NCBI GenBank assembly: GCA_032718475.1
Contig: JAUCBJ010001614.1
Coordinates: forward strand, 1-49,068
Direction of reading: 5' to 3'
From: Nemertoderma westbladi
Lineage: Eukaryota; Animalia; Xenacoelomorpha
Length of the DNA stretch: 49,068 nt
In this document: positions 1 through 47,043 of the stretch, piece by piece
Numbering within the stretch: position 1 is the stretch's first letter
How the letters are laid out: each line of letters begins with the position of its first letter
Position numbers and translations under genes: made by a program
Notes under the pieces: model-generated
The model's database searches: none
What the model was told of the DNA's origin: nothing
What the model saw: only the letters and a program-made list of their open reading frames with translations

Positions 1-519
1 CCATAAAGTTAAGCCGATAAGCAATATTGGGGGCCACGAGATTGGGTAATCAACCAACTCGTGCCACCCCAATAAAATGGGAAGGAGAAACACAATGAGG
101 GTCAGGGGCCAAACCCCTAACCCAGAGAGAACAGGTGGAGTGAACGGAAACACTCCAAAGGGCGCCAACAAGGGTATCAACCAATCAGAGGGGGGAAAGG
201 CATCGATTAGGTAGAGTAACAAGGCCAACCGTGCAATATAGCCACTTGGCAGTAATCATTTCAGTTCAGTTATCTCAGTATCATATTGGTGCTAGTTAGG
301 TTAGTTAGTTTAGCTAGGGAAGGACCGGGACTTTAATTACCGTATCCCGCCTTCTGTATACGACAACATTATTCATATACCTATATCTATATACCCTATA
401 TCTATATCAGTTATTATATACGACGAACGACACGAACTCCTTTCACCTTTCATACACACGGCGGGGACGCGTGAACTAAACAACCGGATAAACCGGGATC
501 CTTCCTGGATCCCGTCACA
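1..519 (+). repeat. 5' LTR (first 28 bp lie outside the window)
   Basis: Matches 13563-14081 without indels; two substitutions seen (245 C/G, 389 A/T); ends in ...GTCACA. Confidence 0.97.
180..271 (+). promoter_or_regulatory. Putative LTR Pol II promoter (CCAAT box, TATA-like element, TCAGTT initiators)
   Basis: CCAATC at about 181, CAATATAG at 234-241, and TCAGTT at 261-266 and 266-271, about 25 nt downstream of the TATA-like element. Confidence 0.45.
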
Positions 520-582
520 GTAATTAAACTCAAAGCTGCCGCCCTAGCTAGCTAAACTACCAGCCACCAATCACCAAGCGAG

Positions 583-2271
583 ATGAGCCAGTCGGGAGAG
601 ACAACGCCGACGCGGACCCCGGACGAAGAATTAACGATCCGCGAGGCCGCAACCAGGCGGTACAGGCCCACAACGCCGGACCCATCGGTAACGGGTCATC
701 CGGCAGTCCAGGATGAGGGGGGCCGCCTGGAACCCGAGGTCGAGCCAAGAGAAGGAGAGAGCGAGACGGAGGGAGACGGAGACGAGTCGACACGAGACGT
801 GGGTCGACGTACCGATGTCGCCGGCCAGCCACAGGCCGAGGGCGACGAGCGGCCCACCGAAACGGCGACGGTGGGGCCGACGGTACGACGCCGGACCCGA
901 AGAGACGGAGGAGATGTCGGTACCGATGTCGCCGGCCAGCCACAGGCCGAGAGCGACGAGCGGCCCACCGAAACGGCGACGGTGGGGCCGACGGTACGAC
1001 GCCGGACCCGGAGAGACGGACGAGAGGTCGGCGACGAGGACGTCGGGGTTTCTGATCGACTTCGACGGGCCTACAACGCGACCCGGAGACTATTAGAGGA
1101 GGCCAGAGGAGGGGCGACGATAGACAAGGTAAAACTAAAGAGAAGACTAGGTGAGTCGAATAGACACTTTTATTATCTAATGCGCTTCGGGCAAAGAGGA
1201 CTGGCCGAGGAGAGAGCGAGAGGGGTTGCCGAGGAACTGTATGACTTATGGCGGTATAGGGGTATAGAACCTAGCGTAGTGTACGTAGGGCCGTACTTAG
1301 TCGATGCCCGGGGAGTAAAATTAGTGGGTTGGGAGAGACCTGAGGAGGACGAATCCGAGGTTAACCCCGAGGATTCAGCCTCGTCGGTCGGAGGAAGTTC
1401 CGGGAGGCGGGGGAAGGTTAGTAGGACGGGGAGGCGGAGGGAATCCGTTACAACCGATAAGTCTGCTACATCCTCCGTGAAAGAAAGACGGGTGAGAGAT
1501 ATAAATGCCGCGTACCGTCTCGATTTAATAGAGCAAGGTCAAAGGGAAGTAGGTAGACGGTTAGAGGAGGGGAGAGTGCTGCTAGAGAGGGAAATGGCGT
1601 TGATTAAGGAAACCGGAGAGAGGGCCGAAAGGGCCGCGAGAAGCCTTAGGGAGTGTGAGGAAGTAGGGAGGAAGGAACAAGAAGAGCGCGAGGAGAGAGA
1701 GAAAAACGAGCGCAAAGAGCGTGAGGCGGAACGTAGGGAGCGCGAGGCGAGAGAGAAAACTGAGCGCAAAGAGCGTGAGGCGGAACGTAGGGAACGCGAG
1801 GTGAGAGAGAAAAATGAGCGCGAAGAGCGTGAGGCGGAACGTAGGGAACGTGAGGCGAAAGAGGAAAACGAGTGCAGAGAGCGCGAGGAGAGGAGGGAAA
1901 ATGAACGCAGAGAGCGCGAGGAGAGGGAGGAAAACGAACGCAGGGAGCGTGAGGCGAGACGAAGGGAGGGGGCTAGAAGAGAGTTGGAATTGGCCGAACG
2001 GGACGCACGGGAGTGTAAAGAGAGGATGGCAAGGAAGGAGTGTGAGCAAAAGGAACTAGAGAAACGTCAAGGTGAGCTTACAGGGTACAAAGCTGTACAT
2101 ACGCGCGAACGGGAATTGGCGCGAGTAGGGGCGTCTGAGAGTGGGACTAGCTCGAGTATTTTCGAGGAGCCAGGGGCCGTGGATACATTTATTAATATCC
2201 CACTTACAGGGACCGCACGACAGACCCAAGACTGGTGTGACCATACGGGCGGGGGGGGGGGGGGGGGGTAA
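583..2271 (+). CDS. Gag-pol N-terminal segment: low-complexity region, 111-bp duplication, E/R-rich coiled coil
   Basis: First ATG after the 5' LTR; 562-aa ORF that stops just after a G18 run, where another frame continues; 111-bp tandem duplication starting at 809 and 920; EREAERRE repeats at about 1690-1970. Confidence 0.7.
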   Translation: MSQSGETTPTRTPDEELTIREAATRRYRPTTPDPSVTGHPAVQDEGGRLEPEVEPREGESETEGDGDESTRDVGRRTDVAGQPQAEGDERPTETATVGPTVRRRTRRDGGDVGTDVAGQPQAESDERPTETATVGPTVRRRTRRDGREVGDEDVGVSDRLRRAYNATRRLLEEARGGATIDKVKLKRRLGESNRHFYYLMRFGQRGLAEERARGVAEELYDLWRYRGIEPSVVYVGPYLVDARGVKLVGWERPEEDESEVNPEDSASSVGGSSGRRGKVSRTGRRRESVTTDKSATSSVKERRVRDINAAYRLDLIEQGQREVGRRLEEGRVLLEREMALIKETGERAERAARSLRECEEVGRKEQEEREEREKNERKEREAERREREAREKTERKEREAERREREVREKNEREEREAERREREAKEENECREREERRENERREREEREENERREREARRREGARRELELAERDARECKERMARKECEQKELEKRQGELTGYKAVHTRERELARVGASESGTSSSIFEEPGAVDTFINIPLTGTARQTQDWCDHTGGGGGGG

Positions 2272-3925
2272 TAATAATGCTATAGTAGACATCGTTAATA
2301 TTAATAGTACCGTATGGGATAACTCTAACCAAACCTTTATTGCAGCGAATAATGCTTTACCTAGTAGCAGTAATTTAAATTTAAGTACAAATAATAATTT
2401 CAATTTGAACGTGCAAAATAATTCAAATAATTTAAATAATGATCCAAGTCCGAATTTACAAAATAATTCAAATGATTTTGTTTCAAACGAACAAATTAAT
2501 TCCGTTTCCAATATGGGTGCTATTAACATGAACACGTTGGGCGTGTATGGCCAGGCAGACGGGGGCCTGGTAGGCCGTACAATTGGTAGGTCAGAAGTGG
2601 CGGGATTGAGCCAACCCAGAGAGGGCCTGGTAGGCCACGTAGTTGATAGGCAGGGAGCGGCTGGGTTGGACAGACCCAGCGAGGGCCTGGTAGGCAACGT
2701 AGTTGGTAGGCAGGGAGTAGAGGGCCTGGTAGGCCACGCAATAGCAGAGGGGGAGGCGGGGGTGAATAGACCCGACCGCGGTAGGGTTGATGTGTCGACT
2801 AGAGAGGGATATAGTAGCGGGGTGAGGGATAGCGAAGTTAGATGTGGCGAGTGGGGGGGGCTACAGGGGCCCCACAACAGCGAGTTAGCGGCGAAAGGGG
2901 GGGGGGGCAGGGAGTGCTCCACAGCCGTCAGCGGACAATGCGCGGGCCGAAATAGGTAAACCACAACATCCGGCGATGGAGAGTAATAGGGGGATTGCGA
3001 GTATCCCCAGCGGCGTGCGACCGAGCAGAGAGAGACAGGTTGACGTCGCGAGAGGGCGGACGAAACGTCGAGCCCGATCAGAAGAGGGAAGAAGAACAGT
3101 GGGGTTTAACCGGGAGGTCGACGAGAGATCTCACGAGCGGGAATACTACACTGGAGGGAGAGGAAGAGAAGACAGTAGTAAAAGTATCGCCGCGAACGAT
3201 AGAAGAGCGAGGACGGATAGCGAGCCGTCGGTAGTCGAGATGAGAACGGAGAGTCAGTGGGGTCGGACTCCGGGAGATTGCCGTCGCCCCGGAGAGATGC
3301 GACCTGGTGAGGTGCATTATGCGCCGATGGAGGGGTACGCGATGTACCGGTACGAGGACGAGAACAGTAGAGAGGGAGGTCGAAGAGAAACTTTCCGACG
3401 GAATGTACCTACCGATCGAGAATACGGTAGCCGCGGGGAGGATTATTCGAGAAGAATAAACTTCGATCCCGAGCGACACATGCAGACTGTAGGACATACT
3501 GTAGGCCTTACTGCACATACCATAGGCCATACTGAGAGAAGCAATGTAGGCGATAGGATAGCGCGGACAACGGGATTAAACCCGGAAGTCGCGGAATACA
3601 TACCGACGGGTAGGCCAGAAGCTGATAGGCCTATACCGGTACCAGTACAGCAGTATGACTACAGCATGCAGGGACATAACATATACCCAGGGGAGGGGGG
3701 AATTATTGCGGATAGGTGTATGGGCCCCAACATATTAACATCAACCCCAGTACCAAACATACCGGTGGGGGGGGGGGGGGGGGACAGGGTGACATTCCCC
3801 CATCACAATATCAACAATATACCCCGATAGGAGCAAGAACAACGAGACCCTTGGATGAAAATAGGTCGTGTGACACGACCGCTACCCCCGATGACATACC
3901 CAAGTCAAAGAAGATCAAGAAATAG
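2269..3925 (+). pseudogene. Middle of gag, split by frameshifts at poly-G runs
   Basis: Successive open frames (2141-2959, about 2907-3830, 3716-3925) switch at G18 (2251-2268), G11 (2897-2907) and G17 (3767-3783); N-rich and G/R-rich low-complexity peptide. Confidence 0.55.
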
Positions 3926-4927
3926 GACGGACGAACCGCACCAGACAGGAGAAACTATACAGCATCCATCGAACCCATTGGAAGTGCAGGCGATGGGGAT
4001 GGCCACGTTGATCGATGCGTTGAAAACGAGGATCGAGTTACCACCCATGGAACCATTCAAATTCGATGGGAGTAGGCCGGAAGAATATCTACAGTTTCGG
4101 CGCATGTATAGTAACGAAATACTAACAAAAAACTTGACGCAGGCGGAGTGCCTAAAGTATCTGCAATATACACGGGAGGCCCAGCATACGATATCGTGAG
4201 GCAATATCAAGGAATAGAGGGCGGCTTCACGACAGCGTGGCGGGCACTGGACAGGGAATACGGGCACCCGGCCAAGATCATCAGACAGACACTGAGAGGC
4301 ATAACATCGGGTGGCCTACAGGATAATCCTGTTAGCATTAAGACGTTCGCTAACAAAGTCGAAAAGGCGCTAATCGTGCTGAAGACGCTAGACGCGCCAT
4401 ACGAGCTCAACGCGTCCAATAACATCACCACGATAGCACAGGCACTACCGAACTGGCTGCGCAACAAGTGGAGGAAGATCGCTTTATCCACTCGAGACGA
4501 GAAGGGTGTGGAACCGGGTTTAGAAGAAATGTCAAGCTTCTTAAACTACGAGGCTGAACTAATAACTGACCCAGTCTATAGCGAAGATAGCCTGGGAAAG
4601 GGACCGAAGACGGATTACCATAGACCGAAACCAGAGCACAATACATCAAACGCATTACCGAGGCTCAGGCAATCATTGCCATATGCAGCGACGCAGGGGA
4701 CTGCAAGTCCACAGCTAGCCGAAGATAAGACAACACCATGGAACGGACAGGGGAATAATAACAACATAAATAAATAAAACCCCAGTACGTCCAGTAGGAC
4801 GAATCCAAACAATAAGAATAGTAGGGACTTTGGTACAAACGCAGCTGCGATACGCAATGCACTGTATAAAGAGGGCTACGACCCAAAGAGCAAATGCCAG
4901 CTACACGCAAATGCGCTTCATCAAACC
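3855..4927 (+). pseudogene. Bel/Pao Gag core (DUF1759-like capsid) and start of the nucleocapsid region, disrupted
   Basis: IELPPMEPFKFDGSRPEEYLQF...LKYL, then YTGGPA...AWRALDREYGHP...LPNWLRNKW; frameshift near 4170; a single in-frame TAA at 4775-4777, after which the frame runs into pol through CQLHANALHQTMNC. Confidence 0.8.
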
Positions 4928-7900
4928 ATGAACTGCAGGTACTGGCAGGCGCTACCTAGGCAAGATCAGATAGATTATGCGTTGAGCAACAATATCTGCT
5001 CGCGATGTGTAATGAGTGGACATAGAGCAAGGGAGTGCAAGGAGAAGCCGGTAAAGTTTGGTCAGAGGAGAGGCCAGACGATGGCGACGAGCACAGTAGG
5101 GGCAAAGAAGAGAGGAACGGTGTTACTTGGAGTAGTACCCGTGCGAGTGATTGGGGAGGGTAATCGATCAGTAACAACACTAATGCTGGTTGATAGTGGA
5201 GCTGCCTTCACATTAGTCGAGGAATGGGTGGCCGAAGAGATAGGATTGAGAACAAGGCCAAGCAGAATGGCAGTAACAACCATCTCTAGCAAAGATGAGA
5301 TCCTGGAGATGAGAACAGGACGGTGCGCAATTGCAGCGGTGGCACCGGGATGCGACTATGGGGCAACCATCGACCCCATCCAAGTGATAGAGTCAATTAA
5401 TATCAATACCAGGCGGCCAACCAACATCGAGGTCGAGCAATATAAATTCCTGGACGACATTGACTTCTCAATCCCAGATGTGGACGTTAGGAAGGTATCC
5501 ATCATAGTAGGAATGGATTGCCCAACGGCCCACGAAAGAATGCAAACGGTCTTCGGCGAAGACAAGCAGTGTGACCCGGTGGCGATATTAACACCATTCG
5601 GGTGGACGCTGAGTGGCCCAATCAAGAGTAAGATACCATTTAGGATGTCGGAGACATCAGGATGCATGTCCGCGGGAACAATGCAGGAAATGGGTGATGA
5701 GGGAGCAGAGGAGCAGCTTAAAAGACTGCTCAGGCAAGATTTCGAGGGACTAAAAGAGACCGGGGTCGGGACCTCGGTAGAAGACAAGCAGGCTTTACAA
5801 AGCGTGGAGGAATCGATGACATGCAATGAGGGGCGGTATACTATAGGAATGGTATGGAAACTACCGAAGATACCGCTGCCCGATAATAGAGGGATGGTAC
5901 TCACGAGACTCCGCAAGCTGAAACAAACACTAAAACGGAGCCCCGAGAAGAATGAGTACATCCACAGAACGATTAAGAAGTACGTCGAGAAAGGATGGGC
6001 AGTGGAGTTACCGGTCGACGAGCCGAACACGGACAGGACATATTACCTGCCACTCCACGTGGCTTTAGACCCAAAGAAAGGTAAACTACGGATGGTAGTC
6101 GACGCATCGGCAAAGACCGACGGAAAATGCTTAAACGACTACCTGTTAGAAGGCCCAAACATATACAACTCGGGCATAGAGGTCCTACTTAGATTTAGGA
6201 ATGGGAAACACGCCTTCACGTGTGACATAGAAGGCATGTTCAACCAAGTCCGTGTAACGGAGGAAGATAGCGACAGTCAGCGCTTCTTATGGTATAACGG
6301 CGAGGAAGAACCGTCGATAATACCGGCATATAAGATGGTAGTACAAAACATGGGGGCCAAGTCGTCTTCATTTACGACGACTATGGCAGTGAGAGACACA
6401 GTGAAGGGGAAGGAAGATAGATACAGCACTAGGGCCGTCGATATGATTCAACGCGGCTTCTACGTAGACGACGGAATGGAGTCTGGAAATATGGTTAAGG
6501 AGATACTGGACACGGGGCGCGAGGTTCGCGACATCCTAAAAGGATCCGGCTTTAACCTGACCAAATTCCAATCCAGTTCGGAAGAATTTATCAAGGCAAT
6601 AGAGGACAGGAGGCCAGAATCGACCATGGATAATCCCACAACCGCCAAAGGGCAGGACATGGCGATTAAGAGAACAGAATCTCAACAGAAGGCATTGGGA
6701 ATCGTGTGGAACAGAGAGACAGACGAACTGAAGTATCAGCTGAGCCAGGAGGGCGCAGACATCCACACGAAGAGGGGCTATGTATCGTATATAGCAAGGA
6801 TATACGATCCCCTAGGCCTAGCATCCCCATTATTAGTCACGGGGAAACAGATACTCAAGAGAGTATACAAATTGAAGGATGAGTGGGACGTAGAGGTACC
6901 AGAGGAAATCAAGAAACAATGGAGTAAGTGGACAGGAGACTTGGAGAAGATGGGAACATACAACATGCCACGAGTGTATTTCCTGGATGGGAACATGACG
7001 AACCTGGACCTGCACATGTTCTCCAATGCGTCGTTGGAGGCGTACGGAGCGGCACTCTACTTAGTGCAACGAGAGGGGGCTCATAAGCCCAGACTAGCCT
7101 TTAGCAAAGCGAAGTCAACGCTGTCAGATTCAGCATCAGTTCCCAAATTAGAATTGACAGCTGCGAGACTAGGAGTTAGAGCCACAGCCTACCTAGTGGA
7201 TACTATTCCCAACATAGTGGAGACACACTACTGGACGGACTCCATGGTAGTACTTGGTTGGCTACATAACGAAAGGACGAGATACCCAATATTTGTCGCA
7301 AATAGAGTGGACGAAATAAGGGCGACCACAGAACTGGAAAGGTGGCACTACTGCCCAACGGACGAGAACCCAGCGGACTTGTTGTCGAGGGGCGTGGTAC
7401 GCCACACTTTCTTGAAGAAGGAAGTATTGTGGCAACATGGGCCACAATTTCTGAGCGATAAGGAGGCCTGGCCGCCGATGAGAAAGGTGGACCCGGGCTC
7501 AGAAGTGGTGTCAGAGGGAGAAGAGGGAGATTCAGAGGGAGAAGAGATATACTCCCAGATGGTGAGGGAGATTAGGGACGTGCAACCAAAATCAGAAGAA
7601 CTGTGCGGTAACCCGACGGATAAACTCCTCAGCTACAGTTCTAGTTGGTATAAGACCAAGAAACTAGTGGCGTACTGGAGAGCCTTCGGGAATTTCCTCG
7701 CGGGAGTTGGCAGAGACAAGAAGATCAGGACATCCATAGATCTGGAAGGAGCGGCAAAGGCAATCATCCGCTATGAACAACAGAAGAACTACGGCGACGA
7801 GGTAGAACGTGTCGGTAACCAACAACACCTCCGACGGGACAGCGAGCTGATCACGCTGTCGCCACAACTTAATGACGACGGGATTCTAGTAATGAACTCT

Positions 7901-9088
7901 AGGGTGGGATACAACAACAGCATAATCGTACCACCGAAACCCATCATCATTCCAACAGGATCGCCAATAGTTCACCAGATTATCTGGGACTCCCACAAGT
8001 CGATATTGCACGGGGGCACCAACCGAACCCTCACCGAGATAAGGAGGACCTTTTGGGTCAAACAGTTGAGGAAGAAGGTAAAAGCGGTGGTGGGGCAGTG
8101 CCAGACCTGCCGACGAGCGAAGAAGGAGCGAGCCATACAAGAGATGGCGCCACTACCAGCGAGTAGGGTAAGACAGCACGACCTGCCATTTACGCATTGC
8201 GGTGTGGACATGTTCGGGCCGATAAAGATCAAGGTGATGCGGCACACGGAGAAACGCTACGGTATCATCTTCGTATGTAACAACACGCGGGCGGTAGGGA
8301 TAGAACTCGCCCAAGATGCAACCGCATCAGCATTCATTAATGCCTTAGAAAGGTTCAGGGACCGCAAAGGTGGGACGATCGCAGTGATATACAGCGACAA
8401 CGGGACCAACTTTGTGGGCGCAGAGAATGAGATGGCAGAGGCCTTGGACATCCTGGAAGGAGAAGAAGTCAGGGCAGCCATGAGACGACGACAAGTAAAG
8501 TGGGAGAGAAGGACACCGTATGCACCACATACGCTAGGGTGCGTCGAGAGACTGGTGGGCAGTTCAAAGCGTCTTATGACGAAGCTAATGAACACCCACA
8601 TGGTCACTGAGGACGTCTTACGGACAGTGCTTGCGAAGTGCGAGGGGATCATTAATAGCAGACCGCTATACCCGGAGAATGATGACCCTGAGTCATTAGA
8701 CGTGCTGACGCCTAGCCATTTCCTGATGGAAAGGCCAGCGACCATCGATATGCGGGGTGTAGACCCAGATGACATACACTCCCGCCAAAGTTGGAAAGCC
8801 GCTAAAGCAATAAGCGCAGAGTATTGGAGGAGGTGGGTAGAGGAATACCTACCCACACTCCATAAAAGGAGTAAGTGGAGGAAGCCAAATAGGGAGTTAA
8901 GAGAGGGAGATCTCGTAATCGTTACGGATGATACTATCATCAACAACCAGTGGCGGTTGGCGAGAGTTGTAGGCACTTACTCCGACGAGGACGGAAGAGT
9001 CCGATCGGTAGAAGTGCGGATACGTGGTAAGATAGGTGCGAAGGACAGAAAAACCTACAGGAGAGCAGTAGGAAATGCTGTCTGTTAG
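4928..9088 (+). CDS. pol: Pol polyprotein: CCHC knuckle, aspartic protease, reverse transcriptase, RNase H, integrase (Bel/Pao)
   Basis: CSRCVMSGHRAREC; protease LVDSGA; RT CDIEGMFNQV and FYVDD; RNase H LHMFSNAS, LEL, WTDS, NPAD; integrase H..LHGG...CQTC, GVDMFGP, SDNG, CVERLVG; C-terminal WRRW..EYL and WRLARV. Confidence 0.96.
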   Translation: MNCRYWQALPRQDQIDYALSNNICSRCVMSGHRARECKEKPVKFGQRRGQTMATSTVGAKKRGTVLLGVVPVRVIGEGNRSVTTLMLVDSGAAFTLVEEWVAEEIGLRTRPSRMAVTTISSKDEILEMRTGRCAIAAVAPGCDYGATIDPIQVIESININTRRPTNIEVEQYKFLDDIDFSIPDVDVRKVSIIVGMDCPTAHERMQTVFGEDKQCDPVAILTPFGWTLSGPIKSKIPFRMSETSGCMSAGTMQEMGDEGAEEQLKRLLRQDFEGLKETGVGTSVEDKQALQSVEESMTCNEGRYTIGMVWKLPKIPLPDNRGMVLTRLRKLKQTLKRSPEKNEYIHRTIKKYVEKGWAVELPVDEPNTDRTYYLPLHVALDPKKGKLRMVVDASAKTDGKCLNDYLLEGPNIYNSGIEVLLRFRNGKHAFTCDIEGMFNQVRVTEEDSDSQRFLWYNGEEEPSIIPAYKMVVQNMGAKSSSFTTTMAVRDTVKGKEDRYSTRAVDMIQRGFYVDDGMESGNMVKEILDTGREVRDILKGSGFNLTKFQSSSEEFIKAIEDRRPESTMDNPTTAKGQDMAIKRTESQQKALGIVWNRETDELKYQLSQEGADIHTKRGYVSYIARIYDPLGLASPLLVTGKQILKRVYKLKDEWDVEVPEEIKKQWSKWTGDLEKMGTYNMPRVYFLDGNMTNLDLHMFSNASLEAYGAALYLVQREGAHKPRLAFSKAKSTLSDSASVPKLELTAARLGVRATAYLVDTIPNIVETHYWTDSMVVLGWLHNERTRYPIFVANRVDEIRATTELERWHYCPTDENPADLLSRGVVRHTFLKKEVLWQHGPQFLSDKEAWPPMRKVDPGSEVVSEGEEGDSEGEEIYSQMVREIRDVQPKSEELCGNPTDKLLSYSSSWYKTKKLVAYWRAFGNFLAGVGRDKKIRTSIDLEGAAKAIIRYEQQKNYGDEVERVGNQQHLRRDSELITLSPQLNDDGILVMNSRVGYNNSIIVPPKPIIIPTGSPIVHQIIWDSHKSILHGGTNRTLTEIRRTFWVKQLRKKVKAVVGQCQTCRRAKKERAIQEMAPLPASRVRQHDLPFTHCGVDMFGPIKIKVMRHTEKRYGIIFVCNNTRAVGIELAQDATASAFINALERFRDRKGGTIAVIYSDNGTNFVGAENEMAEALDILEGEEVRAAMRRRQVKWERRTPYAPHTLGCVERLVGSSKRLMTKLMNTHMVTEDVLRTVLAKCEGIINSRPLYPENDDPESLDVLTPSHFLMERPATIDMRGVDPDDIHSRQSWKAAKAISAEYWRRWVEEYLPTLHKRSKWRKPNRELREGDLVIVTDDTIINNQWRLARVVGTYSDEDGRVRSVEVRIRGKIGAKDRKTYRRAVGNAVC

Positions 9089-9270
9089 AAGGGGCACCTT
9101 AGTGGAGTTGGTAATGAGTTTAGTCGTCCAAGCTTTGGACTGAGGGGCGTGGGATTGAGGGCGAGACGCCCTTCCCACACATAAAAATAGAAAATAAAAA
9201 TAGAAAATAAAAATAAAATAATAGTACATAGTAGGTACGCAGTTAGTAGGCAGAAGTTAGTCAGTAAGAA

Positions 9271-9790
9271 GGTACGTAGTACCTAGAGTTAGTCAGTTAG
9301 TTAGGAGGTACGTAGTACCGCTAGTTAAGTAGAGAGTTAGAGGGTACGTAGTACCGTTAGTTAGAGGAGAGTTAGAAGGTACGTAGTACCTAGAGTTAGT
9401 CAGTTAGTTAGGAGGTACGTAGTACCGCTAGTTAAGTAGAGAGTTAGAGGGTACATAGTACCGTTAGTTAGAGGAGAGTCAGAGGGTACGTAGTACCGTT
9501 AGTTAGAGAAGAGTTAGAGGGTACGTAGTACCGTTAGTTAGAGAGTTAGAGGGTACGTAGTACCGTTAGTTAGAGGAGAGTTAGAGGGTACGTAGTACCA
9601 TTAGTTAGAGAAGAGTCAGAGGGTATGTAGTACCGTTAGTTAGAGAAGAGTTAGAGGGTACGTAGTACCGTTAGTTAGAGAAGAGTTAGAGGGTACGTAG
9701 TACCATTAGTTAGAGAGTTAGAGGGTACGTAGTACCGTTAGTTAGAGAGTTAGAGGGTACGTAGTACCGTTAGTTAGAGCAGAGTTAGAG
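9271..9790 (+). repeat. Tandem array of about 15 units of 32-36 bp with a GGTAC-GTA-GTACC hairpin, between pol and ORF3
   Basis: Consensus AGAGTTAGAGGGTACGTAGTACCGTTAGTTAG(AGA) read repeatedly. Confidence 0.92.
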
Positions 9791-10268
9791 GTAGAAGGGT
9801 ATATAAGATATAGATATTAGTTAGCAGTTAGTAGCGAGAGGGGGGGCATATGAGTACAGTTGGATAGATCGTGTAGGCCGCGCGACATATACTGCTGTAC
9901 TGCACAGGCCCACAGAGTAGGCCAGAATGTGGATTAGAGAAAAGAACAATCCATAGGCAATAGTAAGTAGTAGGACAGTAGAATTAAAATTAAAATTAAA
10001 TTAAAATTAAATAGAATAGGGCTGAAAGTTACAAATAATGGCAACACAAAGAAAGTTATTCTGGAACATAATAAAAGTAACGGACAGAAATTGTAAATTA
10101 GGCTCATTTACTAGCTTCAAAATTAATTAGTTATAATTTAGGTTAAAAGGCGCAGTTAAGTAAGGAATAGGCCATTATCGGACCGTACAGAACATCCTAG
10201 ATACATCACTCATCTGTATTGCGCCTTGGTAAGGCACCACCTTGCAGGTGAGCGAGTGAGTGTTCGGA

Positions 10269-11249
10269 ATGGCGAGCAAATTGATCAGAAAGAGAAAGGC
10301 GGAGTCAGGAGGAAAGGAGATGCTGGTGGATTTCACCGAGAGGCATCCGGAAGAGAAGACGAGAGGATACTACGAGAGGTTGGAAAGGGGTCACGCGGCA
10401 CGAGCGCTGCAGGATCACTTCCGGGAGATGCACGAACAGCGGCTGGTCGGGACCTACGGGACGCCGTCGCTGGATAACGCGATCTTCCAACACTTCCACT
10501 ACGTGGTGAAAGGGGACAAGGCGAAGTTCGGGATTCCGAAGTACCCGAGGGAATCACCGAGGAAGGACTGGAAGAGATTCATAGAGTCCGTCAACAGAGG
10601 AGGATATATGATCCTAGACGACGAGGGAACCGTGGAAGACGAGGCGGGTTCGAGACGAGGAACGGCGGGGTCGGCCAGGACCATACTCCTACATTTGGCC
10701 GCGCCAAATGGGGACATCTTCTTATTCGATCTAGGAACGTATGGGAAGAAGGACGGGCCGAAATTAAACCGGTTACCGAAAGCGGTACAAGTCTTGGTAA
10801 GAGAGAAGTCGACGACGAAAGTGGGATCAGCGATTCACGAGGATGCGGAGAGAATCATCGGTCCGGACGCCACCAACCTCCTGGATATGCAGAAGGTCTT
10901 TATGGCTATGACGGCACCGGATGGGTTGGGGGTAGTCGAAAACACAGGCCAATGCGGGGCGGTGGCAATGGGCCAATTATTGGGGCTCGTGTGCCACAAA
11001 CCGATGGATTGGGGGAAGTTCAGGGAAGAATACGGAGCAGAACTAGCGAACTCGCTAAAGTGGGGAGCGAGACCGGGAAAGCAAGAGGTATATCAATTCC
11101 GCAGAGGAGCGATAAAGGTATATCAGAAGCGATATATCCTGCAGGAAGATTGGATGATGATAAGTTTGCTTAACTTATTTATGACCGTGGTTATCGAGAG
11201 GGAACCAGGGGCATTTCTGTTATCGGGATCACCCCTAAGCTACATGTGA
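10269..11249 (+). CDS. Retrotransposon ORF3, N-terminal part: DEDDy 3'-5' exonuclease-like domain (WRN/Mut-7/EXD/RNase D-like)
   Basis: ExoI YMILDDEG; LLHLAAPNGDIFLFDL; LPKAVQVLVREKSTTKVGSAIHEDAERI (ExoII); NLLDMQKVF; ExoIII-like QKRYILQED. ATG at 10269 in the context GGAATGG. Confidence 0.75.
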   Translation: MASKLIRKRKAESGGKEMLVDFTERHPEEKTRGYYERLERGHAARALQDHFREMHEQRLVGTYGTPSLDNAIFQHFHYVVKGDKAKFGIPKYPRESPRKDWKRFIESVNRGGYMILDDEGTVEDEAGSRRGTAGSARTILLHLAAPNGDIFLFDLGTYGKKDGPKLNRLPKAVQVLVREKSTTKVGSAIHEDAERIIGPDATNLLDMQKVFMAMTAPDGLGVVENTGQCGAVAMGQLLGLVCHKPMDWGKFREEYGAELANSLKWGARPGKQEVYQFRRGAIKVYQKRYILQEDWMMISLLNLFMTVVIEREPGAFLLSGSPLSYM

Positions 11250-12823
11250 GCCTTTAAAATGGCCTTCGACGGTCTGGTAGACCACCCGGGGCTGAAGGGC
11301 GAGTCGGTGTACTATAACAGCCGGCATCTGGTAGACGGGGAGACAGATACGCCGTATCAGAGATGGGAGCAGCTAGAAACGGATAGACGAGAAGCAAAGC
11401 GACTGGAAGAAGTCGCTAGACGGGAGAGGATAGAAGCAGAGGAGAGGGAAGAGGAGGCCAGGACACAGAGTCGAGGAGACACGGCTTCGAGGAACAGGCG
11501 GGCTTAGACGAGCTTCATTGGACTTCGTCAGGGAGTTCGGGGGAGTCTCTAGGGCGAGAACTGGGATGGACGGTGGGATCACCGAAACAATCGACGTCGG
11601 GGTTGCAAGCGATGCCCATACCAGCGGGCGCCGAAGGCGACCAACCGCCAAGGAAGTTAAGGGAGTTAGAGGGATGGAGAGCCACGGGTGAGAGCCAAGG
11701 CGGGAAGGGACATAGTGGATCCATCGCGATACCGGGGTTGGAGCCACTGCCAGAGGAGGAGGAGGGCGACGACGAGTTCGGAGAGATGCCGCCCATCGAG
11801 AGGATAGGCCACTCGGACACGGACTGGGTTGGCGGAAGGGTGGTGACGGCCAGTGGGGCGAGGGCCTTCTGGAACAGATCTGGCAAGCGGACCTGGGTGC
11901 ACGAGGAGCCGGCGATGGATTTCGCGGGGAGCACTATCAGGTTGGGCGAGCAACCGGGGACGGCACCACGGATAGTATTCGGGGAGACGATGCCCGAGAG
12001 GGGCGGAGAGATCGACGTAGACAGAGACACCAACGTGGAGAAGTTCGCCTACCAGCGACTCCACAGACCGTGGAGGTCGCTTGGGACGAAAGACGACGTG
12101 GGGCGGGAGACATTGGTACTCGGCTGCGACTACTGTGGGAGACAGACCCACCAGGAAAGGAGCTGCCTGTACCGGTTCCAAAAGGGAACCTTTTGTCTCT
12201 ACTGCCGAGAACCAAGCCACAGGATGGGGGCGTGTCCACGGTTGCATAACCGATGTCCAAAGTGCCACTTTCGGGGACACTACGGACGCCAGTGCGACGG
12301 GATGGACGACGAAGAGAAGTTCAGGAGATTCGAGGAGTGGGCCGACGTTGGGGCTATGACGCGCCAGCGCATGAAGGCCCAGGAGTTCAAGTGGGGTTTC
12401 TTCCTTATCAATCAGGAGGCTCACATGGAAATCATAAAGCGGAGGCTACCGTTTACCTATCGAGAGCTAGCAACGGCGGCGTCGTATGCTGGAGTAATGA
12501 ACACACAAAGATATTTGGACAGGTGGACGCCACAGAACCGAGGGGAGTTTAGGGATTTCTTGGCGGAGCACGTACCGCAAGCAATGAAGATGATCCTATG
12601 GGACGCCACCAGAGGGAGACAACAGGGCCACTCTGAGGGGCCACCGGCGAAGCGATATCGGGCACTAATAACACCAGCACCCAAGGAGCCAACAACCGGA
12701 ATCAGCAGGGAGGTGGCGGCGAAGGTCCGAAAGCAGAAAGCGGATCCCAGAGGAGCGGTGGTAACCAAGAAACGACCCAGGGAAGAGGACGCCAGGGGGA
12801 ACTATCCCCAGAGGAACAGATAG
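11250..12823 (+). CDS. Retrotransposon ORF3, C-terminal part with three CCHC zinc knuckles (one stop and one frameshift separate it from the exonuclease)
   Basis: The frame continues past TGA 11247-11249 (same frame as 11259-11507). The frame of 11573-12823 is open back to at least 11465. Knuckles CDYCGRQTHQERSC, CLYCREPSHRMGAC, CPKCHFRGHYGRQC. Confidence 0.75.
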
Positions 12824-13525
12824 GTTCCCAGGGCTGAGGGAGAGAAACTGGGACTTGGACGTGGTACGCCTGGAAGGCGCCGCGTGGGACGTACGAACTA
12901 TTAAGTACAAATCTAATTAATGCAAATAATCATATAAGTGCAATTCGTATGTACGTACGTAGTAATTAGTAATCTACAAATATACGTTCGGAGTAAGTAC
13001 TATAGTCATACAACCTTTCTCAATTAGCTACTGGGACTGGGGGGATAACTGACTATGGCACTATGGACGAGACACCAGACAATTTCACACTTCTTGAGTG
13101 CGACGGCACAAGAGGGGGGGGGAGATTCGTCAGAAGGGATGAGGCAATCGAAGTGGGGTTGAGGAACGGAGCAATAGTGCGAAGTGCGGAGAGAGTGCGG
13201 ACGCAATTCTAGTGTGTGGGGGGGGGGAGAATAAGAGGCTGAGTGAGGGACGAGGAGGTCCGAGGGTATGAGAGAGTTAGGGTGAGAGTGGAGAAGAGAT
13301 AGGGCGAAAGTGTTGGGGAAACAAAAGTCGCGTGAGAGGTGAGCGCGATCGGCCCGACATGAGACGCCAGGCATACAGGGTAGCGTTATCATACCCATAG
13401 GGAGCGGCCTGGAAAGCCGGCTCCGAGAGAAAAGAATTCCACCCCACACCCGATACTAGATCGGGATCCAGCGGGATTGTAGCGCACTTAAGGTGGATGC
13501 TATCTTCTCACCGGGAAGATAGCAT

Positions 13526-13534
13526 GGGGGGGAG
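13526..13534 (+). promoter_or_regulatory. Polypurine tract (plus-strand primer)
   Basis: GGGGGGGAG directly before the TG of the 3' LTR. Confidence 0.85.
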
Positions 13535-14081
13535 TGTTAGCTTATTCAATCCCGCTAACACCCCATAAAGTTAAGCCGATAAGCAATATTGGGGGCCACG
13601 AGATTGGGTAATCAACCAACTCGTGCCACCCCAATAAAATGGGAAGGAGAAACACAATGAGGGTCAGGGGCCAAACCCCTAACCCAGAGAGAACAGGTGG
13701 AGTGAACGGAAACACTCCAAAGGGCGCCAACAAGGGTATCAACCAATCAGAGGGGGGAAAGGCATCGATTAGGTAGAGTAACAAGGCCAACCGTGCAATA
13801 TAGCCAGTTGGCAGTAATCATTTCAGTTCAGTTATCTCAGTATCATATTGGTGCTAGTTAGGTTAGTTAGTTTAGCTAGGGAAGGACCGGGACTTTAATT
13901 ACCGTATCCCGCCTTCTGTATACGACAACATTATTCATATACCTATATCTTTATACCCTATATCTATATCAGTTATTATATACGACGAACGACACGAACT
14001 CCTTTCACCTTTCATACACACGGCGGGGACGCGTGAACTAAACAACCGGATAAACCGGGATCCTTCCTGGATCCCGTCACA
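13535..14081 (+). repeat. 3' LTR, 547 bp, TGTTAG...GTCACA
   Basis: TG/CA termini; identity to 1-519 ends exactly at 14081. Confidence 0.97.
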
Positions 14082-15318
14082 TAGAATGCTATGAAAAAAG
14101 CATGTCAAAACTTTTGAACCAAAACTATAACCATCACAGCTAGCTATCCGATAATGACATATTGTAAGACAACTCAAAAGCGAAATCCTGAACAACTTAT
14201 GGGTGAATGAGATTAAATGATTGGATGCAATGTAAAAAACATTGCCAAGCACTCTGAACGTGAACATGCCATCTCTGGAATTCTCTTGCACGCAAGTATT
14301 GCATTTGCTTAGTATTTGTGCCATGACTCATCAGTGGACTATGAATACATTTAAATTCATGTTGACTCCATATCCACTCATACCTATACAGACAACCTAC
14401 ATGAAAATGGATTACCAGAATGATCTGAGACCTCCAAGTCCACATGATCCTTCTGACAACAAAGATATTAGATTTCGTTCCTTCATGCAAGCCGTGGCTC
14501 AAGACCTTATATATACCTATATAGATATATTATATAGACCTTATAAATATTAATAATTTGGTAGGACATGCATTGATGACCCATTTTTAGCGCCAATATG
14601 ATCTCGCCAGTTGGCAGGTGCCTCATCCATACGTATGAAGGGATGCTAAGAATGTAATGAAACATTCCAACATTCCAATATTCCTGAAAATGTCTGTAGA
14701 AGAATGTTTCGCAATAACCTTCAATTTACACTCTATGGTATAGGGGGAGGGGGGGGGGGGGGTGGATGTTAATAAAAAAAATTTATTGTGAAAAAAAGTT
14801 TCGGACAAGTAAGCAGGCCGCTACTCTTGCAATAAAGATTTGTATTTCTCATTTGTATTTTCTAAAAACGTTTCCTGTTAAGAATAATAAAAAACAAGCA
14901 ACTAAGACCGACGGATGAAGAAACAAATGCATATTAAATGCGCTTCACATAAGCTCTCTCTAAAACTATTTATCTGGTATGGTAGGTATTGGTATAGAGT
15001 ATTACATATTCCCGTAGTATCGCCCTTACAGTAGTAATTCGTGACACGCCTCACTCCGAACTCCCACTAACGTGGAGCTGCAGAACATGCCGACACCAAC
15101 ATAATTGATTTCAATCAGTTTTAAGTAAATATAAAGCCTCTTATATCCCCTACTCAGTCAGCCCTACAATGAGCCACTCCTGTCTGTTGTACCTCCCATC
15201 CTTAAGTAATTACTGAGGAGATTTAAGAATCACGAAGGAAGCATGGCTCTGTGGTGATTGCAAAGGTTACGAAAGTTGTTGAAGTCATTAAAAGCAAACT
15301 TTTAACGTAAATTTTCAG

Positions 15319-28217: not shown

Positions 28218-30561
28218 GAAAGATAAATGTGCAAATGGAAAGTGGGATGACCTACAACCTATTTCCCACCTGATTTTGATATAATGGTACCTGTATGACG
28301 ATAAGCTTGTTTACTTCGTCCGCGGAGCTTGCTTACTTGCATACAGTCCCCCACGAACGTGTTCTGATGGTGTGTACCGCTGATTACACGAAATACAGTA
28401 AACATTAACAAGTTATAAGGGGAATTAGGCCTCGTCGGTTATTCTTATCAATATCAATATCGTATATCAATATGTAATGCTGAACACAGAATACAGGTCG
28501 ACGCATGTCGATTTTACCCTGGAGAGGTATAATTTTGATTGCAACAATAATATTCATCCCCATCTGCTACAATTTGAAGAAGACTATTACATAATAATAC
28601 CTATAATTAAAACAATTAATTATTATAATTCTATAGTTAATAAAAACAGTATATCATTCGGGGGATGGAATTTATAGGTCATCTAATTAATTGTTTAAAG
28701 ATTAGCAAACAATACGATGTACTTGCATTGATAAAACCCATAAATAAAACTTGGATATAAAATGTAAAATCGGGATGCAAAAGATCACTTTCTGAGCTAC
28801 GAAAGGAAAATTGGATACAACTTATCTGGATACAAGCGGTCCGTTTACCTTATAAATGAAAAATACGAATGTGCGAAGTTAAGAACTGTCGGGGGGGGGG
28901 GGGAGGGGGGGGGGGAGTGTCCGGGGGGAAGTGTCCGAACACCAAATAAACACTTAAGTAATAAAACTAACCAAGACTGCATATACTTACAATCATAATA
29001 CTTGATAACAAGACAGACAACAGAAATTACATGAGATATAACGATAAAATTTAATATTTCCGGTAAATAAAATACTTATTATACCTTCTCGTCTATCTAT
29101 CTCATTTACCTCGCTAGCTGCGCACGCCCGGTAAATATGTGATGTCGAAAAGAGCGGTAAATTAGGCACTTTTTATTTTCCTTACAAAATTAGTTATAAA
29201 ATGTACTTTCACTCACATCTTGTTATAATATAATAGATTTACTTTGTTTCTCAAACAATTATTGATAACTATTCAATAAAATAATAATTAGTGTCATTTT
29301 ATGAAGCGCAGTAGCTGCAGTGCTATCGCTGTATCTCCTGTTTGTATAGAGAAATTAAATGTATCATATCGTGGAGGAAGTAAACAGCTGCATGATGCAG
29401 CATACAAGCAATCCGTGTATTTAATATGATATAACGACCTCCAGTTAGGGTTCATTATTTACAGTATTTGACTGGCGTAGTCACATGCTCCGAGAAAAGA
29501 ATACTGGAAAGCACCGGCACAATGAACAATTTAGTAGGTAAACAATAATCATTATGTTGATAGCTTGCATAGCAGGCGAAAATACAAAGTTATTCACTTC
29601 TAATTGGCCAACAGGATTACAGAGAATGTGAGAAGTAAGTGATAAACCCAAATACCAGCTGATTACTCTCAAAAATATAACTGTAATCTATTCTATGGAC
29701 TTCCCCCCCCCCCCCTCCCCCTCCCCCTGTCTCCCTAGTTTAGGCCTCACAATAACGGAGTACCATTATAATTCAACGGAACTGTATTGGCTAATATTTA
29801 TTTAGGACAATCTTACCTGATAATAAAGTTGTTTTATTCCAATTTGAAAAGTAAGAAGTTCTGTGAAGTCAAAAGCAACAGCTAGTATAAATTTAACTAT
29901 TTTTATGAAAACTGAGAAATAATGGTAGCGGCTCATTTACTTTATGGAACTGATGTGAAGTAGTTTGGTTCGTTTCATTTTGATTGGCTGCTTTCTCTCT
30001 ATACACTCAGAGAAACAACTGTGGTGCATCAGTCAGGCAAAGGAAAGCCGACTGCTGAGGAAAACCATTGGGAAACAGCCGAGCAGCAGATGGGAAGGAA
30101 GGAGGAATTTGCCCAATTAAAAATAACATCCATTTCGGGAAAACATTAGAAAATGGCGCAATAACATCATGAAATTTTATATATTGATAGAAAGTACAAA
30201 CACGTTTGGAAATACCAATAATATAAAATTATCAATTTTCAAAAAAAAATTATCTATCAATTCGTATTCTCAAATTTGAGAAATTCCCCCCTAAATATTT
30301 AACTCTTTTTTTTAACAAAGCAGCTTGATAAGAAATCGAACCGAAATTTTACATTTTTTTAAATAAAAATAATAAATAATAATAATTTTAGTGCTCTCGT
30401 TGTGTTACTTGCACTCACTCACTCGTACATTAAAGATTATTATATTAGCCTTCAATTGTTGAACAGTAGGTCTCACTTCTAATACACTCAGCAACAACTA
30501 GGCCCTACTACCGTAAAGACTACCATTTAGATAGTTCAAAAGCCAAATTTTACAAACAAAG

Positions 30562-32922
30562 GGAGAGGAGCCTTTGGGTTGCCTGTGGTAGAGAGAGACG
30601 CCTTCGGGTAGCCTGTGGTAGAGAGAGGAGCCTTTGGGTAGCCTGTGGTACAGAGAGGAGCCTTTGGGTTGTCTGTGGTAGAGAGAGGAGCCTTTGGGTT
30701 GCCTGTGGTAGAGAGAGGAGCCTTTGGGTAGCCTGTGGTACAGAGAGTAGCCTTTGGGTTGTCTGTGGTAGAGAGAGGAGCCTTTGGGTTGCCTGTGGTA
30801 GAGAGAGGAGCCTTTGGGTTGTCTGTGGTAGAGAGGGGAGCCTTTGGGTTGCCTGTGGTAAAGAGAGGAGCCTTTGGGTTGCCTGTGGTAGAGAGAGGAG
30901 CCTTTGGGTTGTCTGTGGTAGAGAGGGGAGCCTTTGGGTTGTCTGTGGTAGAGAGAGGAGCTTTTGGGTAGCCTGTGGTACAGAGAGGAGCCTTTGGGTT
31001 GTCTGTGGTAGAGAGAGGAGCCTTTGGGTTGTCTGCAGTAGAGAGAGGAGCCTTTGGGTTGCCTGCAGTAGAGAGAGATGCCTTCGGGTTGACTGTGTTA
31101 GAGAGAGGAGCATTCGGGTTGCCTGCGGTAGAGAGAGGAGCCTTTGGGTTGCCTGCAGTGGAGAGAGGAGCCTTTGGGTTGCCTGTGGTAGAGAGAGGAG
31201 CCTTTGGGTTGCCTGTGGTAGAGAGAGACGCCCTCGGGTTGCCTGCAGTAGAGAGAGCAGCCTTTGGGTTGTCTGTGGTAGAGAGAGACGCCCTCGGGTT
31301 GCCTGCAGTAGAGAGAGGAGCCTTTGGGTTGTCTGTGGTAGAGAGAGGAGCCTTTGGGTTGTCTGTGGTAGAGAGAGGAGCCTTTGGGTTGCCTGTGGTA
31401 GAGAGAGGAGGCTTTGGGTTGCCTGTGGTAGAGAGAGGAACCTTTAGGTTGCCTGCAGTAGAGAGAGACGCCTTCGGGTTGCCTGCGGTAGAGAGAGGAG
31501 CCTTTGGGTTGTCTGTGGTAGAGAGAGGAGCCTTTGGGTTGTCTGTGGTAGAGAGAGGAGCCTTTGGGTTGCCTGCAGTAGAGAGAGACGCCTTCGGGTT
31601 GCCTGCGGTAGAGAGAGGAGCCTTTGGGTTGCCTGTGGTAGAGAGAGGAGCCTTTGGGTTGCCTGTGGTAGAGAGAGGAGACTTTGGGTTGCCTGTGGTA
31701 GAGAGAGGAACCTTTGGGTTGCCTGCAGTAGAGAGAGACGCCTTCGGGTTGCCTGCGGTAGAGAGAGGAGCCTTTGGGTTGCCTGTGGTAGAGAGAGGAG
31801 CCTTTGGGTTGCCTGTGGTAGAGAGAGACGCCCTCGGGTTGCCTGCAGTAGAGAGAGGAGCCTTTGGGTTGTCTGTGGTAGAGAGAGGAGCCTTTGGGTT
31901 GCCTGTGGTAGAGAGAGGAGCCTTTGGTTTGCCTGCAGTGGAGAGAGGAGCCTTTGGGTTGCCTGCAGTGGAGAGAGGAGCCTTTGGGTTGCCTGTGGTA
32001 GAGAGAGGAGCCTTTGGGTTGCCTGTGGTAGAGAGAGGAGACTTTGGGTTGCCTGTGGTAGAGAGAGGAGCCTTTGGATTGCCTGCAGTGGAGAGAGGAG
32101 CCTTTGGGTTGCCTGTGGTAGAGAGAGGAGCCTTTGGGTTGCCTGTGGTAGAGAGAGGAGACTTTGGGTTGCCTGTGGTAGAGAGAGGAGCCTTTGGATT
32201 GCCTGCAGTGGAGAGAGGAGCCTTTGGGTTGCCTGTGGTAGAGAGAGGAGCCTTTGGGTAGCCTGTGGTACAGAGAGGAGCCTTTGGGTTGTCTGTGGTA
32301 GAGAGAGAAGCCTTTGGGTTGCCTGTGGTAGAGAGTGGAGCCTTTGGGTTGCCTGCAGTGGAGAGAGGAGCCTTTGGGTTGCCTGTGGTAGAGAGAGGAG
32401 ACTTTGGGTTGCCTGTGGTACAGAGAGGAGCCTTTGGGTTGCCTGTGGTACAGAAAGGAGCCTTTGGGTTGTCTGTGATAAAATTAGACGCATCCGGGTT
32501 GCTGCAGTTGAGAGAGATGCCTTCGGGTTGACTGCGGTGGAGAGAGGAGCCCTTGGGTTGCCTGTGATAGAGAGATGAGCCTTCGGGTTGCCTGCGGTAC
32601 AGAGAGGAGCATTCGGGTTGCCTGTGGTAGAGAGAGGAACCTTTGGGTTGCCTGTGGTAGAGATAGGAGCCTTTGGGTTGCCTGTGGTAGAGAGAGGAGC
32701 CTTTGGGTGTCTGTGGTAGAGAGAGGAGTCTTTGGGTTGCCTGTGGTAGTGAGAGGAGGCTTTGGGTTGGCTGTGGTACAGAGAGGAGCATTCGGGTTGC
32801 CTGTGGTAGAGAGAGGAGCATTCGGGTTGCCTGTGGTATACAGAGAGGAGTCTTTGGGTTGCCTGTGGTAGAGAGAGGAGCCTTTGGGTTGCCTGTGGTA
32901 GAGAGAGGAGCCTTTGGGTTGC
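30562..32922. repeat. 30-bp minisatellite (GAGAGAGGAGCCTTTGGGTTGCCTGTGGTA), about 78 copies
   Basis: Directly visible, in register with the 60-nt lines. Confidence 0.96.
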
Positions 32923-39822: not shown

Positions 39823-40000
39823 AGTAGTAGGGTCTTGTGCGGCTCGGCGACAGTTAGACCTCACTGACTGGCGCCAGACTGTCTGGGTGACACCCAATGA
39901 CACCTATGGGTGTCATTGGGTGTCATTGGGTGTCACCCAGACAGTCTGGCGCCAGTCAGTGAGGTCTAACTGTCGCCGAGCCGCCCAAGACCCTACTACT
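39823..40000. mobile_element. 178-bp foldback element with target-site duplication
   Basis: Arms of about 80 bp, AGTAGTAGGGTCTTG...CAAGACCCTACTACT, one mismatch; TGTATG on both flanks (39817-39822, 40001-40006). Confidence 0.88.
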
Positions 40001-45636: not shown

Positions 45637-45700
45637 CTGCAAATAAAATAAACAATTCTTAGACAAATAGTGTAAGCGTAAAGGATAGTAGGTAAAGAGT

Positions 45701-47043
<1,343 letters not shown>

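Follow-up and report, generated by a model that had tools for sequence, protein, structure and literature searches.

A BEL/Pao-type LTR retrotransposon from Nemertoderma westbladi that may use its own RNA as the minus-strand primer

INTRODUCTION

How does an LTR retrotransposon start minus-strand DNA synthesis if no TGG follows its 5' LTR? The question is raised by a locus of Nemertoderma westbladi (GenBank assembly GCA_032718475.1, contig JAUCBJ010001614.1), of which a stretch of 49,068 nucleotides, the window, was analyzed. BEL/Pao elements are described as being primed by host tRNA, and their replication is poorly understood (ICTV profile, PMC8742986). The initial annotation, made from the letters alone, proposed that this element primes itself from a transcript of its own LTR and knew of no such case in BEL/Pao. 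A full-text literature search of sources other than subscription journals, Repbase reports, and supplements likewise found no report; the main texts of PMC554778 and PMC3118150 never mention PBS, tRNA, or priming, and passages of PMC8220671 and PMC5443660 add nothing on BEL/Pao priming. We consider priming of minus-strand synthesis by the element's own RNA to be the best explanation of the data, with a probability of about 0.76.

A recently copied element of the BEL/Pao type

A single LTR retrotransposon, truncated by the window edge within its 5' LTR, extends to 14081 and has the following parts:

1 to 519, + strand: 5' LTR, the first 28 nt of which lie beyond the window edge
583 to 4777, + strand: gag-like region, in the pieces 583-2271, 2129-2959, 2889-3830, and 4115-4777
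4778 to 9088, + strand: pol reading frame with protease, RT, Peptidase_A17, integrase, and DUF5641
10269 to 11249, + strand: extra ORF, possible DEDDy/WRN-like 3'-5' exonuclease (Atlas feature score of 0.94)
13526 to 13534, + strand: polypurine tract (PPT), offset 0 from the 3' LTR
13535 to 14081, + strand: complete 3' LTR of 547 nt, TG..CA, with the purine tract directly 5' of it

Positions 1 to 519 are identical to 13563 to 14081 at 517 of 519 sites (the differences are at 245 and 389), and the match stops at the CA of 519/14081, where the initial annotation had placed the LTR end. Since the LTRs differ at only 2 of 519 sites, the element is judged to be young and recently copied. Its Pol domains are, in order, PF13650, PF00078 (weak), PF05380 (E = 6e-38), PF17921 (E = 2e-12), PF00665 (weak), and PF18701 (E = 8e-23); among the matches listed, PF05380 is found in 120 of 120 homologues, and the best homologues share 32 to 38% identity in RT-RH and 31 to 43% in integrase. 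By these domains, together with a Pfam match to DUF1759 (E = 9e-6) in the last gag-like piece (4115-4777), the element is of the BEL/Pao type. In an 85-row tree without named references or outgroup, from which six loci with short matches were excluded, L089 included, it forms an unplaced long branch (2.64).

The gag-like region is unusually long (~4.2 kb) and contains a 111-nt duplication (809-1031) and an R/E-rich repeat. Its frame breaks lie beside G runs near 2240-2268, 2896-2909, and 3768-3783, and the fragmented reading of gag in this copy may reflect either decay or sequencing errors in G runs. Pol is followed by two extra ORFs before the 3' LTR begins. The first (10269-11249) matches a WRN-like exonuclease cluster by Atlas features, with PF01612 in 38% of the members, and its acidic motifs, judged by eye, presumably resemble those of a DEDDy 3'-5' exonuclease. 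For the same ORF, no match in Pfam or PDB and no sequence homologues were found; the one 18-residue match is likely spurious, and the structure prediction (pLDDT of 31) is unusable. The second (11420-12823) has several Cys/His clusters like zinc knuckles, with zf-CCHC_5 at an E value of only 0.49, and matches no known family. Between pol and the first of these ORFs, 9240-9800 is an array of imperfect repeats of ~27 to 30 nt with the palindromic core GGTACGTAGTACC. Directly 5' of the PPT is a 13-bp hairpin (13497-13525; −17.8 kcal/mol for 13490-13534), which may position plus-strand priming. In the DNA flanking the element, there are large tandem arrays of 30-nt and 8-nt repeats as well as an inverted repeat of 82 bp (99% perfect, 14-nt spacer), at 30440-33040, 45655-47050, and 39823-40000 of the window. 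No relatives of the element were found in viral contigs, and a 22-base pattern spanning the LTR-leader junction had 0 matches in metagenome contigs.

Complementarity between the leader and the LTR

No TGG follows the LTR, as had been stated in the initial annotation; the sole TGG in 481 to 700 is at 506, within the LTR. The segments that are involved in the proposed pairing are listed below:

268 to 340, + strand: predicted self-primer, ~73 nt and intron-less, the best LTR segment against the leader (3-nt grid)
285 to 291, + strand: third helix, upstream arm (partner 565-571)
311 to 319, + strand: second helix, upstream arm (partner 542-550)
332 to 340, + strand: predicted primer 3' end, complement of 520-528, with polymorphic site 336
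520 to 528, + strand: primer-binding position, offset 0 from the LTR CA, starting with GT, with polymorphic site 524
542 to 564, + strand: leader arm predicted to pair with 295-319 (MFE pair list)
565 to 586, + strand: leader arm predicted to pair with 270-291 (MFE pair list), spanning the first ATG (583-585)

The complementarities claimed at the outset are exact for 520-528 with 332-340, for 542-550 with 311-319 (mean pair probability of 0.96), and for 565-571 with 285-291 (0.95). The alternative register proposed for the second helix, 548-559 with 306-317, is also exact as a complement, but its formation is not predicted (p = 0.00). Within the element, the complement of 520-528 occurs in the two LTRs only. 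Taken alone, the 9-mer is modest evidence, being present in 133 of 20,000 shuffled LTRs (P ~0.007), and in a looser search 4 of 300 shuffled leaders, and 0 of 17 cross tests, scored as well. The duplex of 268-340 with 520-590 has a predicted energy of −48.2 kcal/mol, which is equalled by none of 2,603 other 71-nt windows of the element and is reached by only 1 of 2,000 shuffled leaders. Among LTR segments that do not overlap 268-340, the best one attains −26.9 kcal/mol. With the first 12 leader bases removed, the extended leader pairing still has a z score of −4.7, and 0 of 40 shuffles are as good. The pairing between leader and LTR starts at 270, only two bases past the predicted transcription start at A268, and the energy reaches a plateau for segment starts between 249 and 270.

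It is imaginable that all of this is chance or a relic, with low-complexity repeats that pair accidentally in a copy that has lost its normal TGG site. Indeed, the arms hold short TAG-type repeats, gag is broken in this copy, and the P value of the 9-mer alone would leave room for an accident. However, the shuffle tests and the relatives described below make chance unlikely, and the recent copying of the element speaks against a relic.

An element-encoded tRNA-like primer, an idea that originates from the element Cer7, was considered as a candidate and rejected: ARAGORN reported none, Rfam (E of ≤10, positions 1 to 14300) gave four weak and unrelated hits, no tRNA was found in the window or in the 21 loci scanned, and a literature search on such primers yielded nothing relevant.

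Predicted folding of uncut and nicked RNA

Three further segments of the LTR take part in the predicted structures:

341 to 351, + strand: stem just 3' of the predicted cut (partner 460-469), in the MFE and the forced structures
471 to 480, + strand: decoy, a near copy of the primer site that competes with 520-528 for 332-340 (MFE pairs)
494 to 514, + strand: 8-bp hairpin before the LTR end, U5-IR-like (−15.6 kcal/mol)

In the uncut RNA, the outer helices of the fold-back proposed in the initial annotation are predicted with probabilities of 0.95 to 0.96, but the innermost helix, 332-340 with 520-528, has a probability of 0.00 in all five fold lengths. The MFE structure pairs 332-340 with 471-480 instead, and forcing the primer-site helix costs 5 kcal/mol. 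In nicked RNA, the probability of the primer-site helix is 0.43 for a nick at 340, peaks at 0.51 for one at 341, and falls almost to zero if the nick lies at ≤338 or ≥344; a free 268-340 strand binds the primer site at 0.98 if the decoy is left out. On these models, the decoy would prevent the primer-site helix from forming before a nick or a remodelling of the RNA, which would probably occur in the particle. The decoy contains a possible poly(A)-signal-like word (475-480), and the family has many substitutions and indels in 472-484. No variant among those listed falls into 341-354 or 455-472; in 494-523 no substitutions are listed, and the indels at 505-506 fall into the loop of the hairpin.

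The same structures might be explained without self-priming, by a fold-back that serves the 5' leader in translation control, dimerisation, or packaging, with a host tRNA fragment or small RNA as the primer that binds from 520 onward without a TGG. The outer helices are stable and cover the AUG, and the uncut RNA lacks a predicted primer-site helix, all of which fits a leader structure. The anticodon loop of tRNAs has an invariant U33 and a purine at position 37, and by eye the complement of 520-540 misfits this pattern; furthermore, no tRNA-like sequence lies within the element. Host-RNA priming also leaves unexplained the complementarity of 336 and 524 and the different sites of 13 relatives that match their own LTRs, both described below. 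Half-tRNA priming without a match to the tRNA 3' end is known in Ty1/copia lineages (PMC6317226), a precedent that speaks for this explanation. On balance, we regard it as improbable.

Variation within the family

The family was followed in four DNA runs (X1 to X4) of short contigs, which carry the same organism label and come from at most three samples and at most three studies; one of them may be the source of the window. It is a high-copy family with an LTR depth far above the leader depth in the runs. The share of 336 A>G is 0.69, 0.83, 0.79, and 1.0 in X1 to X4, and that of 524 T>C is 0.81, 0.86, 0.86, and 0.64. The two positions are partners in the primer-site helix, which has A-U in this copy and G-C in most of the (unphased) depth. 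Hence, the search for compensatory changes called for in the initial annotation finds complementary changes at these partners dominating the family.

With a cut-off of 4%, 336 A>G is the only substitution listed for 305-354 in three runs, no substitution is listed for 494-523 with 524 T>C as the next one, and 36 of the 40 rows listed lie in 355-493; this list omits 526, 533, and 551, which are present in another list, and a stretch without entries does not establish invariance. In 268-590, this copy has the minor letter at six sites, namely, 336, 524, 355, 444, 533, and 588. If six minor-letter sites are drawn at random, both members of a pair are hit in the primer-site helix in 0.3% and in any of the 51 model pairs in 1.5% of the draws, in a test that was picked after the data had been seen and with depth shares from contigs that are rough. 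Because this copy also has minor letters elsewhere, linkage by descent is expected among these sites, and only the positional coincidence of 336 and 524 counts. The variants at 314, 526, 548, 551, and 555 retain a standard or G-U pair in the predicted fold; those at 296, 571, and 579 break outer predicted pairs.

There is a rival partner for 336. In the decoy helix, a G at 336 would turn the mismatch with C476 into a pair, and the share of 476 C>T (0.23 to 0.27) is close to that of 336 A (0.17 to 0.31). In this copy, 336-476 is mismatched and 336-524 is matched, but 336 could co-vary with 476 as well. As for the origin of the change at 524, plus-strand synthesis in retroviruses copies the end of the primer tRNA; if it copies the primer end here, too, the replication cycle itself would transfer a change at 336 to position 524.

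The runs also bear on the possibility, raised in the initial annotation, that other copies carry a normal TGG site that this copy has lost. Contigs of all four runs cover the LTR-leader junction, the changes there are only scattered, and no TGG-creating change is among the variants listed. With this, we consider chance or a relic largely refuted and the least probable of the explanations weighed here.

Relatives that match their own LTRs

Altogether, scans yielded 90 BEL/Pao loci; 38 have a distant direct repeat, and 17 of them, which have a readable LTR end inside the contig, were scored. L090 and the remaining loci were left out because the 3' end of the LTR was not visible or not resolved, and L029, L071, and the second repeat of L089, scored for contiguous matches alone (≤5 nt), were dropped as non-LTR ends. 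The relatives are 30 to 37% identical to the element in Pol. Fifteen have no TGG, and 13 of these 15 have a 10- to 15-nt match to their own LTR, with a site 0 to 4 nt after the LTR; the two TGG-bearing relatives (2 of 17) have a self-match of 4 nt. The two loci among the 15 that fall short are L033, with 6 nt and a doubtful boundary, and L085, for which the script gives 8 nt. By eye, L085 has 11 nt across an intron with one mismatch, and it was counted as matching only in the analysis of GT starts and offsets. In cross tests, the leaders of other elements never reach the score of the matching element's own leader, and shuffles do so in 0 to 2 of 300 cases. The 13 loci represent about 11 families, two of which are sister pairs; in the sisters L082 and L083, two letters differ on both sides, and the match is kept. 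In L001, a TGG lies 14 nt past the LTR.

The site starts with GT in 13 of 14 relatives, as it does in the element studied here. Furthermore, the offset of the site from the LTR tracks the distance from the G run of the PPT to the LTR (rho = 0.88, n = 13, with phylogenetically non-independent loci and three offsets set by eye), as expected if the primer site defines the end of the linear DNA; in our element, the offset is 0 at both ends. Among 16 relatives examined for extended leader pairing, L089 alone had 0 of 40 shuffles as good (z = −2.7, compared to −4.7 in our element), and L001 is borderline (1 of 40).

Only 3 of the 13 self-matches are contiguous. The other 10 (L001, L011, L013, L043, L057, L068, L074, L082, L083, and L089) appear once an LTR intron of the GT-AG type, 67 to 451 nt in length, is removed. 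This raises the possibility that splicing builds or releases the primer in our element as well, either by removal of an intron inside the primer or by first-step cleavage at GT 342, which would free a 3' end at 341; the helix probability of 0.51 for a nick at 341 would fit. However, a spliced primer was rejected for this element, in which a splice-aware search gains nothing over the contiguous 9 nt, and a cut at 341 leaves the 3' base unpaired. The 9-mer of this copy has no AG, yet the match is kept through T524, and GT directly follows the match in only 2 of the 13 relatives. No GT-AG joint is among the rows listed for the contigs, which are DNA and cannot reveal RNA splicing. For this element, splicing is thus highly unlikely.

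Two side observations concern individual loci. In L022, the upstream repeat (145-326) starts behind a splice-acceptor-like sequence and the downstream LTR (6694-7103) has a ready-made match to the primer site, as if one LTR had lost its intron; the assembly may also mix copies. Eleven contigs in prokaryote genome bins (L080 to L090) encode a BEL/Pao Pol, which probably reflects contamination of the bins with DNA of host animals.

A model of self-priming

Self-priming, as proposed in the initial annotation, is supported because 336 and 524 are complementary, because 13 of 15 non-TGG relatives match themselves, and because the offset of the site follows the PPT spacing; it is still something that we infer. 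The 9-nt core, shorter than the 10 to 15 nt of the relatives, speaks against it, as do the zero probability of the primer-site helix in uncut RNA, the rival partner at 476, and the variants that break outer pairs. The primer would start with the transcript, for which one element is predicted upstream of the pairing region:

181 to 271, + strand: predicted core promoter with CCAAT (181-185), a weak TATA-like word (237-240), and initiator-like TCAGTT (261-266 and 266-271)

Based on what we take to be the promoter consensus and spacing, transcription is predicted to start at A268, 31 bases past the weak TATA-like word and ~85 past the CCAAT box, or at A263, and either start would yield a primer of 73 to 78 nt. 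TATA-like words (382-415) and another TCAGTT (407) would also permit a start downstream of 340, although they lie in the most variable part of the LTR.

In our model, a transcript starting at about 268 would fold back with 270-340 onto the leader 520-586. A cut at 340|341, between the primer-site helix and the stem 341-351/460-469 and next to the U5 hairpin 494-514, would leave the 3' end C340 paired to G520, from which reverse transcriptase would extend into U5 exactly at the LTR CA; strand transfer would then proceed via the remaining R. Because cleavage of the Tf1 type needs a duplex beforehand, a chaperone-driven switch has to be assumed. If the element does prime itself, the analogy with Tf1 points to its own RNase H as the most probable nuclease, with somewhat better than even odds; trimming by the exonuclease-like extra ORF would be an outside chance, and another nuclease is a further alternative. 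As the predicted fold covers the gag AUG, priming would be tied to a non-translated state of the RNA.

In a variant of self-priming, counted within its probability, the primer would act in trans, as a separate short RNA transcribed from LTR promoters (also those of solo LTRs), or would come from the opposite end, as the 3' R end of a genomic RNA; it would be trimmed to 340, possibly by the extra ORF. The high binding of the free 268-340 strand without a decoy fits such a primer, as does the LTR depth far above the leader depth in the runs. The Atlas resemblance of the extra ORF to WRN-like exonucleases is in line with trimming, and DEDDy ORFs are present in rotifer LTR elements (PMC5408684). 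On the other hand, the exonuclease call is unsupported by Pfam, PDB, and homologue searches as well as by the structure prediction, and trimming must get past the stem 341-351. We therefore take this variant to be unlikely.

More tentatively, and with less than even odds, all observations may be joined into one reading. A deep BEL/Pao lineage would have replaced the host tRNA by a primer of tRNA length (~73 nt) from its own leader, which clamps the 5' UTR and the gag AUG; a built-in decoy would shut the site as long as the RNA is not cut or trimmed, a step in which a captured exonuclease may take part; and much of Belpaoviridae would usually prime itself, with primers that are short, spliced, or long.

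If self-priming holds true, a third LTR superfamily primes itself, and 13 of the 17 relatives sampled do likewise. It would also change annotation, since a missing PBS would not mean a defective element, and it would bear on the proposal that hairpin priming preceded tRNA priming (PMC3601003). With a primer that also masks the start codon, the decision between translation and reverse transcription of an RNA would depend on one fold.

Comparison with known systems

Self-priming as such is already known from Tf1-like elements; new here would be the length of the extended primer and the covariation at the population level. As in Tf1/Tf2 of Schizosaccharomyces pombe, the Tf1/sushi group, and Tcn1 (all Ty3/gypsy), the PBS adjoins the LTR and complements the element's own 5' RNA. 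A U5 hairpin adjoins the primer site in our element, and Tf1 reportedly has a counterpart. In contrast to Tf1/sushi, Pol is of the BEL/Pao type and a chromodomain match is absent, so that the element is not a chromovirus. The predicted primer of ~73 nt, with ~50 predicted pairs that span the entire leader as well as the AUG, differs from the 11 nt of Tf1, and a decoy site is predicted to compete for the primer end. Hence, the element likely works like Tf1 but outside the Tf1/sushi group. In Tf1, RNase H makes the primer by a cut between bases 11 and 12 (PMC7175516). Tf1/sushi elements have been described as self-priming, and the same has been predicted for Tcn1 and for the TAR lineage of copia (PMC6317226). 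The TAR lineage (Houba and Osr-1, plant Ty1/copia) is likewise predicted to prime itself through a PBS complementary to the LTR but belongs to another superfamily and kingdom; the survey in PMC6317226 required at least 10 bases, compared to a core of 9 plus extended pairing here.

Among Belpaoviridae, our element shares the LTR size, the PPT, gag plus pol, the order PR-RT-RH-IN, and the Pfam domains typical of the family. It differs from the ICTV profile, which gives an 18-nt PBS for tRNA-Arg or tRNA-Gly, a genome of 4.2 to 10 kb, and LTRs of 0.2 to 1.2 kb (PMC8742986), in having no TGG site, ~14.1 kb from LTR to LTR, and two extra 3' ORFs.

The 13 self-matching BEL/Pao relatives share with it a non-TGG site 0 to 4 nt after the LTR, usually starting with GT; 10 of these 13 need an intron removed, whereas our element needs none. 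A different solution is presumably represented by the half-tRNA-primed types, which we take to include Osser, Bryco, and Bianca, with a PBS against an internal part of a host tRNA.
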